From a virus (lineage: Duplodnaviria > Heunggongvirae > Uroviricota > Caudoviricetes), in IMG/VR virus record IMGVR_UViG_2880372215_000005: a DNA stretch of 56,474 bases; one strand, given 5' to 3'. Under the pieces are notes generated by a model that worked only from the letters and a program-made list of their open reading frames with translations, was not told where the DNA came from and searched no databases. The position numbers and the translations under genes are program-made. This document shows, in pieces, positions 18,015 through 28,995 of this stretch (within the stretch, counting starts at the first letter, position 1; each line of letters opens with the position of its first letter).

Positions 18015-18457
18015 CGTCTCAGTACCTCATCAATGGCCCGGTTCATCCGCGCAATCGCCACCTGAGCTGCCTGTTCACTGCGCACATCAAACGCCGGGCG
18101 CACAAACGGGTGCGGTGGCATATTCACGGTCCCCATTTCCACAAACCGCCAGTAGAAAGCATTGCGCGGGTTATCCGCCTTCATGGTGTTATCGCTGTTA
18201 CCGGTGTCCGGATTAACACCACGGATATGGACACCGGATTCCATCCCGCCATCGCGGGAGCGCCGGGAAAGGACCACCACATTGCGGCGCAGTTTTCCCC
18301 TGCGTACCGGTGCCCGTGACACCACTTCTTCTTTCAGCACATTCGCACCCGCACGGGTTGCCTCACGCAGCACCCGGTTATTTTCCGCACCACTCAGAAG
18401 CTGCAAATCGCGGCTGATGTCCTCCAGCCCCGAAAAATCCAGCAGGGTTTCGATCAT
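18011..18457 (-). CDS. HK97 gp10-family head-tail joining protein
   Basis: 148 aa MIETLLDFSGLEDISRDLQLLSGAENNRVLREATRAGANVLKEEVVSRAPVRRGKLRRNV... gp10-like; identical copy at 25290..25736. Confidence 0.65.
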   Translation of the reverse strand: MIETLLDFSGLEDISRDLQLLSGAENNRVLREATRAGANVLKEEVVSRAPVRRGKLRRNVVVLSRRSRDGGMESGVHIRGVNPDTGNSDNTMKADNPRNAFYWRFVEMGTVNMPPHPFVRPAFDVRSEQAAQVAIARMNRAIDEVLRR

Positions 18458-18803
18458 TTTTCCCCTCCCAGCCGACAGAGAATTTCCAGACGTCCGCCGG
18501 TCGCATCCGGCACGGGCAGCCCGACAACGTTCAGGATCCGGTCACGCCAGGGACCACTCAGCACATGAAGTCGTGACGCTGCCGTGATTTCCCGACCGGA
18601 CTGACCGCGCACCCAGATGCGGATTTCCGCCTGCGCCATTTCCGCACCGGACTGCATCCGCTCCCGGCTGCTCCTGCCCGGATATCCGCATGAATTTTCC
18701 CGCATGACACCCATTCTTCCGTCATTTCTCCGGCAGCGTTACGGGTTAACACCGGGTTCAGAACACTTATCATCTGTGTCAGACGACCTGCAGATATTGC
18801 CAT
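18454..18803 (-). pseudogene. head-tail adaptor (Phage_H_T_join-like), frameshifted copy
   Basis: two overlapping ORFs (18558..18803 and 18454..18714) together cover the intact 116-aa protein seen at 25733..26083; break is a 1-nt difference in a C-run (ccc vs cccc). Confidence 0.6.
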
Positions 18804-18812
18804 TCCCCCTCC

Positions 18813-19136
18813 TCATAACACCGTCGGACAACGCAAATCGTAAATCAGCACGGAACAGAAAACGGCAGCTCCCCCTGAATCAGTCTTCCCGCTCGCAAGA
18901 TCCGGATTCCGGTACAGCATCCCGGTCAGTCGCATGGCAGCCCCCTTCATCCGGGTTAATGCCTCGCCCGGGATCAGTTCACCGTCCTCACGAATCACCT
19001 TATCCCGGCTGCCCTGAATGTAGGCCAGCAGCACGGCGGTAGCCTGACGAACCTTGTCCATCAGCATGTCATCATCCGCGTCATGGTCGACACGCAGATG
19101 TGCCTTGATCTCTTCCAGTGTCAGTAATGCCGTCAT
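18813..19136 (-). CDS. gp6-like head-tail connector protein (copy A; C-terminus differs from copy B by indels)
   Basis: MTALLTLEEIKAHLRVDHDADDDMLMDKVRQATAVLLAYIQG...; same N-terminal 80 aa as 26125..26418. Confidence 0.5.
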   Translation of the reverse strand: MTALLTLEEIKAHLRVDHDADDDMLMDKVRQATAVLLAYIQGSRDKVIREDGELIPGEALTRMKGAAMRLTGMLYRNPDLASGKTDSGGAAVFCSVLIYDLRCPTVL

Positions 19137-19232
19137 TTTCCGCCTCCTGCATCCCGCCACGTTTTGCAGCCAGGGTCCAGCTGATGAATGAGCTTCTCCG
19201 GGTTTATCACGGTCATACTGTTGCAGTGCCAC

Positions 19233-26083: not shown

Positions 26084-26124
26084 TCCCCCTCCTCATAACA
26101 CCGTCGGACAACGCAAATCGTAAA

Positions 26125-26418
26125 TCAGCACGGAAACAGAAAACGGCAGCTCCCCTGAATCAGTTCTTCCCGCTCCGCAAGATCCGGATTCCGGTACAGC
26201 ATCCCGGTCAGTCGCATGGCAGCCCCCTTCATCCGGGTTAATGCCTCGCCCGGGATCAGTTCACCGTCCTCACGAATCACCTTATCCCGGCTGCCCTGAA
26301 TGTAGGCCAGCAGCACGGCGGTAGCCTGACGAACCTTGTCCATCAGCATGTCATCATCCGCGTCATGGTCGACACGCAGATGTGCCTTGATCTCTTCCAG
26401 TGTCAGTAATGCCGTCAT
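26125..26418 (-). CDS. gp6-like head-tail connector protein (copy B)
   Basis: MTALLTLEEIKAHLRVDHDADDDMLMDKVRQATAVLLAYIQGSRDKVIREDGELIPGEALTRMKGAAMRLTGMLYRNPDLA... Confidence 0.55.
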   Translation of the reverse strand: MTALLTLEEIKAHLRVDHDADDDMLMDKVRQATAVLLAYIQGSRDKVIREDGELIPGEALTRMKGAAMRLTGMLYRNPDLAEREELIQGSCRFLFPC

Positions 26419-27583
26419 TTTCAGCCTCCTGCATCCCGCCACGTTTTGCAGCCAGGGTCCAGGCTGATGAATGAGCTTCTCCGGGTTTATCTTCGGTCAT
26501 ACTGTTGCAGTGCCACAGCGAGCCCCCCCACGTCACCGTATCGCCGGGGTGGTAGGTTTCACCGGCTCTGAACACACCGCGGTAGAGCATCACCGGCAGG
26601 GAAAATGTTTTTTCCGTACGCTGGCCACTGCTCTGCCGGACCACCACAGAGAACAACCGCTCACCCGTCATGCTGACGTCAATATCCGCCACCCCGTCAA
26701 CCAGGCATTCCCATCCCCGCATCCCGTGCGTTTTTTCATACGCCCGCCAGAGTCCGCCCTGGTGTGTGGCATACGTGCCCCGGGGAAAGGATTTTTGATC
26801 GTCAATGGCGGGGAGTATTTCCAGTGCCGTGGCATCACGCCCGTCCTGCGGAGCCGGCAGGGCACTCACCGCATCCAGAACCGCCTTCTGCAGAACATCC
26901 GGATCGTAGTCACGACCATCACGCGGAACAGGAATATGGCTTACCGCCTCCTTCACCATCTGTTCAAGCATCGGACGCACATCATCCGGGGTGAGACTTT
27001 TACCGTCTGCCGGCTGCGGAATATTTGCGACCGCATCATTCACCGCCTTCTGCAGTACTTCCGGATCATAGTCACGACCGTCGCGCGGAACAGGGATATG
27101 GCTTACCGCCTCCTTCACCATCTGTTCAAGCATCGGACGCACATCATCCGGGGTGAGACTTTTACCGTCCGCCGGCTGCGGAATATTTGCGACCGCATCA
27201 TTCACCGCCTTCTGCAGTACTTCCGGATCGTAGTCACGACCATCACGCGGAACAGGGATATGGCTTACAGCCTCCTTCACCATCTGTTCAAGCATCGGAC
27301 GCACATCATCCGGGGTGAGACTTTTACCGTCCGCCGGCTGCGGAATATTTGCGACCGCATCATTCACCGCCTGCTGCAGTACATCCGGATCATAATCACG
27401 ACCATCACGCGGTACCGGAATGGCCCCCACAGCGTCATCCACCATCGCCTGCAGAACCGGACGCACCTCATCCACCGTCACATGCTTCTGTAATACCGCC
27501 GACAGGGAAGTCAGTTTCTCTTCAAACGCTTGTGCCTGCGAGGCCATCTTCCCCTCAAATGTGCGCTGTAAATCCGCCAGCAC
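26363..27583 (-). CDS. head-region protein with about four in-frame 54-aa tandem repeats (function unknown; decoration or scaffold-like candidate)
   Basis: 406-aa ORF; repeat VRPMLEQMVKEAVSHIPVPRDGRDYDPEVLQKAVNDAVANIPQPADGKSLTPDD encoded by a ~162-bp DNA repeat; the N-terminal ~18 codons seen in copy A are out of frame here. Confidence 0.55.
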   Translation of the reverse strand: MLADLQRTFEGKMASQAQAFEEKLTSLSAVLQKHVTVDEVRPVLQAMVDDAVGAIPVPRDGRDYDPDVLQQAVNDAVANIPQPADGKSLTPDDVRPMLEQMVKEAVSHIPVPRDGRDYDPEVLQKAVNDAVANIPQPADGKSLTPDDVRPMLEQMVKEAVSHIPVPRDGRDYDPEVLQKAVNDAVANIPQPADGKSLTPDDVRPMLEQMVKEAVSHIPVPRDGRDYDPDVLQKAVLDAVSALPAPQDGRDATALEILPAIDDQKSFPRGTYATHQGGLWRAYEKTHGMRGWECLVDGVADIDVSMTGERLFSVVVRQSSGQRTEKTFSLPVMLYRGVFRAGETYHPGDTVTWGGSLWHCNSMTEDKPGEAHSSAWTLAAKRGGMQEAENDGITDTGRDQGTSACRP

Positions 27584-27894
27584 TGTGGAAAATTCTTCCC
27601 CAGTGCACGAATAATGGACAGTTCCCGTTCCGTCATTTTCTCAGTATCCCCCTGAACATCGCTTTCACCGCATCATGCTCTGTTTCACTGATTGCCTTAT
27701 TACCGTCAGATGCGCCGTCAGGCAGCTGTGATGAAACTGTTTTCCCGGCAGACGCGAACGGATCCTCACGGGCATCACGACGGGACAGCGCCTCCAGACT
27801 GTAGTTCTGCTGCTGAAGATACAGTGCATCACCGCCGGCCAGGGGCGGCAGGTTCTCCGTTTACGGGCCTCATTGGGCGTGAGAAGCGTATTTT

Positions 27895-28995
27895 TCACCG
27901 CATCCCCAGCGTTTTCATGCGCCGCTCACTGTCCATTCTCAGCAGCGTGGTGACATCAAATTCTGTACTCTCGTTTTCCCCCGTTTCCAGCGCCTCATCC
28001 AGTAACAGTTCAATGGACTCAATCAGCGTCTGCAGACACTGGGAATAATACTGCTGCTCCAGCGCCTCCACGTTGTCACTGGAAGGCGGGTGGCCAACGC
28101 CAATCTTGTAGGCCGGGACACGGAACACCGAACAGACAATTTCAGCCGTCATTTTCAGTTGTTCCACCGTCTGCGCATCCACCGGTGAAAACGTCGTGGG
28201 GCTGTATTTTGCCCCGTTGCTCAGTATGGCCGTCTTCCCGGCATTTTCGCCCGTATATCCGCTGTCCCAGTTCCCCTTCAGTTTTTTCGCGTTTTCTTCC
28301 GTAATACTGCCGGGGACCTCAATCACGCCTGATGGTCGCCCGCCATTTCTGAAAAAATACGTCGAATTTGCCTGAATATGATGCCCCTGCATGGCGGCCA
28401 GTCCTGCGGCATACACCGGCGGCAGCCCCACAAGCGGATGAAAAAAACAGTTAAAACGGTCGTGGATCACCTCCCGGGCAGGCACCGTCACCGACTCTGT
28501 GATCCCACAGTTCCGGTCCGGCGTGATGCGGTAGAACACCTCGCCGTCATCCGCCACCAGAGGTTCAACCCGGTTCCAGTCCAGAATACGCAGTTCTTTG
28601 ATCTGCCCCCGGGGGGTGCGGATTTTCAGCACCACCGTATTGCCGTGACGCAATTTGGAATTCAGCCACAGTTCAAAAAACTGGATGCGATTCTGCTGCG
28701 CATTAGGACGACGACAGAGACGGGCAGTATCTCCCTGCCGCTTTTCCCGGCGTATTCCCTGTACATCAGTCTGCATCAGGCGAAGCCGCATTTTGGCAAT
28801 ATCCTGGGATATCAGCGAAATGCATGAAAACACCGCGTGAAAGGACAAAACGGTTTCCGGATCGGCTTTCACCCCCTGCTGCCAGGCACCGGCAAAAGGC
28901 TCAGCCACCGCCTGAAACAGGGACCGCCAGCCCACTTCTCTTACGTCACGTCCTGATTTCTGGTTTTTTCGGGTTCGCCGCAAAAGGTTCCACAT
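27895..28995 (-). CDS. portal protein, HK97 family (copy B)
   Basis: 366-aa ORF with the portal blocks listed for copy A; ends ...TLLRMDSERRMKTLGMR. Confidence 0.75.
   Translation of the reverse strand: MWNLLRRTRKNQKSGRDVREVGWRSLFQAVAEPFAGAWQQGVKADPETVLSFHAVFSCISLISQDIAKMRLRLMQTDVQGIRREKRQGDTARLCRRPNAQQNRIQFFELWLNSKLRHGNTVVLKIRTPRGQIKELRILDWNRVEPLVADDGEVFYRITPDRNCGITESVTVPAREVIHDRFNCFFHPLVGLPPVYAAGLAAMQGHHIQANSTYFFRNGGRPSGVIEVPGSITEENAKKLKGNWDSGYTGENAGKTAILSNGAKYSPTTFSPVDAQTVEQLKMTAEIVCSVFRVPAYKIGVGHPPSSDNVEALEQQYYSQCLQTLIESIELLLDEALETGENESTEFDVTTLLRMDSERRMKTLGMR

Follow-up and report, generated by a model that had tools for sequence, protein, structure and literature searches.

We analyzed IMG/VR virus record IMGVR_UViG_2880372215_000005, a stretch of 56,474 nucleotides (nt; hereafter the window) that is lambdoid prophage DNA of Escherichia coli O157:H7, and in which a head module stands twice, head to tail and without a spacer, as copy A (17373-24650, 7278 nt) and copy B (24651-31960, 7310 nt). 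The initial annotation of this DNA had reported single-base insertions and deletions (indels) scattered through both copies and had left the choice between relaxed selection on a cryptic prophage and unpolished long-read or homopolymer errors in a repeat. Through comparison of the module with its natural counterparts, we found that these indels would be best explained, with a probability of about 0.88, as consensus errors of a long-read-type assembly that are concentrated in a falsely duplicated block, and not as mutations. Copy A is most likely a false duplication, with the real prophage carrying a single intact module as in strain ECP19-198, and we read the feature as a sequence-quality artefact rather than real biology.

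Aligned to each other, the two copies share 98.9% identity, with 35 mismatches and 39 gap openings. As the initial annotation had described, length changes of 1 nt dominate these differences: copy A carries 33 deletion events and 3 inserted bases, with 30 of the events being single-base, and the cited examples were recovered at 18676/25956 (CCC versus CCCC), 18853/26134 (GGAAC versus GGAAAC) and 18871/26151 (CCCCC versus CCCC, copy B being the short copy). The lesions are unequally distributed, with 33 events in copy A, 8 in copy B and 1 in the 41.9 kilobases (kb) of flanks, corresponding to event rates of about 0.45%, 0.11% and 0.002%, respectively. The left flank (1-17372) is identical to strain 8368 at 17372/17372 positions with 0 gaps, and is 100% identical to Sakai prophage Sp10 and to many other genomes as well, while the right flank (31961-56474) shows one difference from 8368, PA20 and 10 other genomes, namely a C lost at 36533 (24514 versus 24515 nt). 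Copy B is a good rendition of the module, matching 85 genomes at 99% or more (best 99.9%), and equals the AR-0428 module minus eight single bases (at 26151, 26438, 27598, 27647, 27856, 27903, 29153 and 29175), with 0 substitutions and 0 insertions; over the longer stretch 24651-51960, the window and AR-0428 are separated by 0 mismatches and 10 gaps. Copy A is a low-quality rendition in which most open reading frames (ORFs) are fragmented. It matches none of 5,426 complete E. coli genomes at more than 98.9%, which is no better than its match to copy B, and no genome is nearer to it than 35 mismatches.

When both copies were aligned with four natural modules as references, the sequence of copy A resolved into a patchwork of two natural alleles, one of the AR-0428 type and one of the 2009C-3554/8368 type. 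The two alleles are distinguished at 116 columns, which all lie within 18493-21953 of copy A. At these columns copy A has the AR-0428-type base 53 times and the 2009C-3554/8368-type base 40 times, 17 columns are deleted and 6 show something else, and the allele switches 33 times in the 93 calls. By comparison, copy B carries the AR-0428-type allele at 112 of the columns and a gap at the remaining 4. The base substitutions that had been noticed in the repeat-protein region of copy A are present, and nearly all substitutions relative to copy B are the 8368/2009C-3554 allele. Isolated private substitutions were not found in copy A, in which the bases that occur in none of the four references sit in indel-shifted stretches; copy B contains zero such bases.

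The deletions themselves fall on the sites at which the alleles differ. Within the variant zone, 27 of the 28 deletions in copy A are at a variant column or in the same base run as one (null 6.65%, binomial P about 4e-31), and over the whole module the same holds for 27 of 34 gap events, a count that includes one mere 1-nt end overlap (null 3.3%, P about 3e-34); 17 of these events are exactly on variant columns, and 27 are equivalent to such a position within the same base run. In typical cases, a column that is CCCC in one allele and CCAC in the other is read as CCC, and GAAAC/GACAC is read as GAAC. At 19896-19898, copy A has two extra bases where the alleles differ by G versus A (..GCGCAACC.. 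versus ..GCGACC.. and ..GCAACC..). Copy B follows the same rule, with 6 of its 7 events counted in the alignment being on variant sites (P about 8e-9), and three deletions are common to the two copies (19156/26438, 20555/27856 and 21869/29175). The single lesion of the flanks agrees as well. The endolysin (lysozyme) gene at 36175-36707 (minus strand) is frameshifted by a G-run deletion on the coding strand, as had been reported, through the loss of one C of C6 at 36533, where the window reads CCCCC, the references CCCCCC and a sister prophage CCACCC, and thus this deletion is also on a paralog-variant site, like those of copy A. Heteroduplex mismatch repair was considered as a source of the patchwork and was rejected, for it predicts neither base loss at mismatches nor identical losses in both copies.

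These observations bear on the simplest technical alternative, homopolymer miscalls that simply stayed unpolished in a tandem duplication that is itself genuine, in which short reads could not be uniquely placed and raw long-read errors survived. The confinement of the errors to the repeated block, the predominance of deletions, and the location of six copy A events and some copy B events in runs of 4-8 bases (for instance A8 to A7 at 17661 and C7 to C6 at 19238) are all in its favor. Nevertheless, such error would favor long runs, and 25 of the 33 copy A events are in runs of 1-2 bases, with only 6 in runs of four or more. Neither the near-complete coincidence of the events with paralog-variant sites in the variable zone nor the two-allele patchwork, which homopolymer error is unable to create, is in keeping with it; nor is a junction between the copies that is unique among >5,000 genomes and has 1 nt of microhomology. 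In addition, strain 644-PT8, described below, shows what plain homopolymer error looks like in this module, and it is unlike copy A. We therefore consider this alternative very unlikely. The short homopolymers emphasized in the initial annotation do account for some of the events, but they are largely an illusion of comparing copy A with copy B only. Likewise, its suggestion of unpolished long-read errors named the right class, assembly error, although most of the lesions appear to be dropped columns at paralog-variant sites and not homopolymer miscalls.

The second alternative is genuine pseudogenisation, that is, a cryptic prophage under relaxed selection that has acquired frameshifts in both copies and in the endolysin gene. 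Many O157 prophages are defective, and in several sister prophages the portal gene carries a frameshift label in RefSeq, which would fit such a history. However, decay would bring substitutions, would be shared with relatives, would ignore paralog-variant sites and would not strike copies A and B identically. Substitutions far outnumber indels in E. coli, and this excess is not seen here: the 14.6 kb of the repeat contain about 42 private deletions, 3 inserted bases and no private substitution, next to 41.9 kb of flanks identical to other strains. The lesions are aimed at paralog-variable sites, and three of them recur identically in both copies. No top match among the related genomes carries any of the lesions, and they are absent from all of the 5,426 complete E. 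coli genomes, so they were not inherited by relatives. The comparison with the same prophage in related genomes, which had been proposed as a check, thus leaves decay unsupported, with the module being single and intact in ECP19-198, and we regard pseudogenisation as extremely improbable. Decay of known cryptic lambdoid prophages, such as those of K-12 and the defective Sakai Sp prophages, resembles the window in its frameshifted structural and lysis genes, but it proceeds by substitutions, larger deletions and insertion sequence (IS) insertions, which are shared by related strains, and the window shows nothing of this kind.

We then turn to the repeat itself, which begins inside the major tail subunit gene and terminates inside terL at about codon 303. 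At the A/B junction (24650/24651), the interior of terL at this codon meets the interior of the major tail subunit gene, and the sequence shared by the two partners is 1 nt (T). The chimeric 263-amino-acid (aa) ORF that crosses the junction (24161-24952, minus strand) is recognized from the ORF list and the junction position as a by-product of the join and not a gene. A 600-nt query across the junction had no match in the 5,426 complete E. coli genomes or in 50,697 phage records, and a 41-nt junction sequence had none in IMG/VR, GTDB genomes or JGI metagenomes. A one-copy query, composed of the left flank, copy B and the right flank, matched no genome at 99.9% or more (best 99.6%), and its differences from ECP19-198 are mainly in the tape measure gene. 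In ECP19-198, the ompN-side prophage comprises ompN, the same tail genes, one intact module (NZ_CP066759.1, 2446133-2454844) and the same late genes up to the equivalent of window position 37316. The duplicate copies of the initial annotation are thus there in the sequence, but most likely do not represent a real duplication, considering that their junction is in no other genome and that ECP19-198 has one intact module.

A physically real A/B arrangement, produced by illegitimate recombination, recent partial duplication or prophage rearrangement and with only the one-base deletions being artefactual, was also weighed. Prophage-bounded rearrangements are documented in O157 (bioRxiv 10.1101/2020.12.02.407981), and relatives carry natural recombinants, with AR-0428 joining the module to the right flank and ECP19-198 joining the left flank to the module. 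The documented rearrangements, however, use homologous recombination and give one hybrid copy, rather than joining non-equivalent sites with 1 nt of homology, and the patchwork and dropped columns of copy A point to a mixed-read consensus. Moreover, the flanks of the window belong to two separate prophages in 8368, 173 kb apart, with fabI, lapAB, ribA, topA and trp in between, so that fabI, lapAB, ribA and topA would be lost through the join in a chromosome of the 8368 kind. The genes between the flanks in 8368 include essential ones, and because these would be lost, a simple real join would be lethal in the 8368 arrangement. A real tandem is accordingly highly improbable; equally so is its corollary, that the tandem was present in the sequenced culture and that the copy A patchwork is true gene conversion between sister prophages. 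The linkage of the two flanks may nonetheless be genuine, because AR-0428 and ECP19-198 naturally link the module to the right and the left flank, respectively; it is the tandem alone that lacks support. An account in which two prophages 173 kb apart were fused into a chimera by a lethal join was softened after these natural linkages were found.

A close parallel exists in strain 644-PT8 (CP015831/NZ_CP015831.1), in the assembly of which the same contig was manually inserted two times on the basis of NcoI optical-map sites (PMC5320650). In the RefSeq chromosome of this strain, a bad copy of the same head module stands beside a good copy, with 0 mismatches between them; the bad copy lacks 105 bases and the good copy 1. 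As in the window, the bad copy abuts the good one, the repeat extends from the major tail gene to terL, the errors are deletions only, and pseudogene calls are many: the locus NZ_CP015831.1 3497152-3521662 contains >12 kb of low-quality sequence (locus positions 1-12382), including the 7-kb head-module repeat, and in this stretch about 20 annotations are of pseudogenes or fragments, nleL, portal, capsid and terL being among them. The two cases differ in that the 644-PT8 deletions are evenly spread, with 49% of events in runs of four or more bases versus 18% in copy A, and in that its bad copy ends exactly on CCATGG, an NcoI site, whereas copy A of the window mixes two alleles and has its deletions on variant sites, and an NcoI site is absent from the junction.

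Other known systems match the window in part. False duplications in long-read assemblies likewise show a head-to-tail repeat, an arbitrary and unique junction, one poorer copy and a related genome that is single-copy; elsewhere they usually stem from circularization overlaps or diploid haplotypes, while here the 'haplotypes' would be paralogous prophage modules in one chromosome. Homopolymer indels of PacBio and Nanopore sequencing resemble the window in the one-base deletions that break ORFs, a minority of which are here in 4-8-base runs, and differ from it in that most events are in runs of 1-2 bases on paralog-variant sites and the rest of the window is error-free. O157:H7 prophage-mediated rearrangements are alike in that the window flanks sit in two different prophages when found in 8368-like genomes and relatives show natural exchanges; yet homologous recombination leaves one hybrid module and explains neither a non-homologous tandem nor one-base deletions.

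We propose that the errors may have arisen from the abundance of the module, of which an O157 genome holds a median of 5 and up to 30 copies. With many near-identical copies in one genome, reads from at least two of them may have been piled together at read correction or polishing; where the reads disagreed, neither base would have won and the column would have been dropped, while elsewhere one allele would have been chosen. The extra copy A could then be an overlap between contig ends that was not trimmed or merged, or it could be a sister-prophage module abutted where two contigs were joined. A toy consensus model that required >50% support reproduced the loss of columns at variant sites, the rate being 15-30% with an even mix and 0-7% with 10% contamination.

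Several points weigh against this mixed-read explanation. The toy model yields no allele switching, though copy A switches 33 times, and therefore a site-wise stochastic step, for example per-read correction or polishing with multi-mapped short reads, is needed too. The right 2.7 kb of copy A lacks all of the about 45 variants that separate the true ompN-side modules (8368, AR-0428) from copy B, and therefore the admixed allele would be of the 2009C-3554 type. The presence of such an allele in the source strain is assumed, although both natural alleles occur in related strains. The repeat ends (17373/31960) lie within 150 and 84 nt of the equivalents of the 644-PT8 repeat (17523/32044), even though the junction sequences of the two differ, and the limits of prophage homology do not explain this proximity: the idea that the repeat ends mark the limits of inter-prophage homology, which would have explained contig breaks, was rejected, since homology extends well past both ends. 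Lastly, we infer the artefact from comparison and not from reads.

As for gene content, Pfam searches gave the order of the head module, on the minus strand, as terS, terL, a 645-aa prohead protease-capsid fusion, a 73-aa ORF, an 859-aa portal with 54-aa (162-nt) repeats, head-tail connector, head closure, gp10, gp17 and an immunoglobulin (Ig)-domain major tail subunit; the placement of terL, the protease-capsid fusion and the 73-aa ORF ahead of the portal is unusual. Copy A spans, on the same strand, the 5′ part of the major tail gene, gp17, gp10, head closure, connector, the portal with its 54-aa repeats, the 73-aa ORF, the protease-capsid fusion and the 3′ part of terL. That copy B has lesions of its own had also been noted, and it holds, for the eight single bases missing in comparison with AR-0428 disrupt the head-tail connector, the portal or repeat protein, and the 73-aa ORF. 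The connector (Phage_connect_1, 26093-26418, minus strand) is frameshifted by deletion 26151. The portal gene (26421-28995, minus strand), which when intact encodes 859 aa with a Phage_portal domain and C-terminal 54-aa repeats, is cut by deletions 26438, 27598, 27647, 27856 and 27903 into ORFs of 366, 77 and 406 aa; the 162-nt tandem repeats of its C-terminal extension occupy 26811-27473 on the minus strand, with their copy A counterpart at 19521-20147. In the 73-aa ORF (28941-29161, minus strand), the start region is changed by deletion 29153, and deletion 29175 is just upstream. The prohead protease-major capsid fusion (645 aa, Peptidase_S78 and Phage_capsid; 29205-31142, minus strand) is intact in copy B, and so is terL (553 aa, 31206-32867, minus strand), which crosses the end of copy B into the right flank.

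The portal is an intact 859-aa ORF in AR-0428 and ECP19-198. At least five independent complete genomes have the 2585-nt portal allele of sister prophages annotated as 'frameshifted' in RefSeq, and for Sakai two portal ORFs are listed; judged from these annotations, the frameshift of the sister-prophage allele may be a genuine natural or programmed one and not an error. Among the reference loci, the portal gene was located at 21772-24351 and 19535-22119 in the two AR-0428 loci (L005 and L007), 22217-24801 in that of 8368 (L002), 21766-24350 in that of 2009C-3554 (L004), 16319-18903 in that of ECP19-198 (L008), and 17800-20384 in locus L003.

The relatives AR-0428 (L005, L007), ECP19-198 (L008/L009) and 2009C-3554 (L004) are differing natural recombinants of the ompN-side and ompW-side prophages. 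The ompW-side prophage of AR-0428 changes to ompN-type sequence midway through the tape measure gene (window equivalent 15392), and the ompN-type head module of this strain is joined to an nleA-bearing tail region, while in ECP19-198 the two prophages are mutually inverted and about 400 kb apart.

Outside the repeat, the left flank is the ompN/uspF side of a lambdoid prophage resembling Sakai Sp10 (minus strand), and contains tail genes from the tail fibre, J and sodC through the tape measure gene to the first two thirds of the major tail subunit gene; the prophage-borne sodC is on the plus strand at about 9987-10514, among the tail genes. The window starts inside ompN (1-770), a gene for which RefSeq annotates a frameshift in 8368 and ECP19-198; at this gene the window and 8368 are identical, and the ompN frameshift looks like a genuine O157 pseudogene. 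The right flank (minus strand), corresponding to the lambdoid ompW-side prophage of 8368, contains the 5′ part of terL, terS, HNH, lysis genes, transfer RNAs (tRNAs), the early region and the integrase. Rfam models identified in it the small RNAs AgvB (39470-39529, plus strand) and STnc100 (39531-39739, minus strand), and sok (44708-44857, minus strand), which adjoins hokD. The tRNA genes are Arg-TCT (39849-39925) and one with a CAT anticodon (40006-40081), called Met by ARAGORN and annotated as Ile in its RefSeq counterpart.

The importance of these findings is limited to quality control. One-base deletions on paralog-variant sites within a two-allele patchwork flag mixed-read consensus errors even when reads are not at hand, and this test can be used on other prophage-rich genomes. 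Taken at face value, the window would pass for a prophage in decay, in which the head module is duplicated and about 10 genes are pseudogenes. After the implied correction, in which copy A would be removed and nine bases restored in copy B and the endolysin gene, the window most probably represents an ordinary lambdoid prophage of O157:H7 whose head, portal and endolysin genes are intact.

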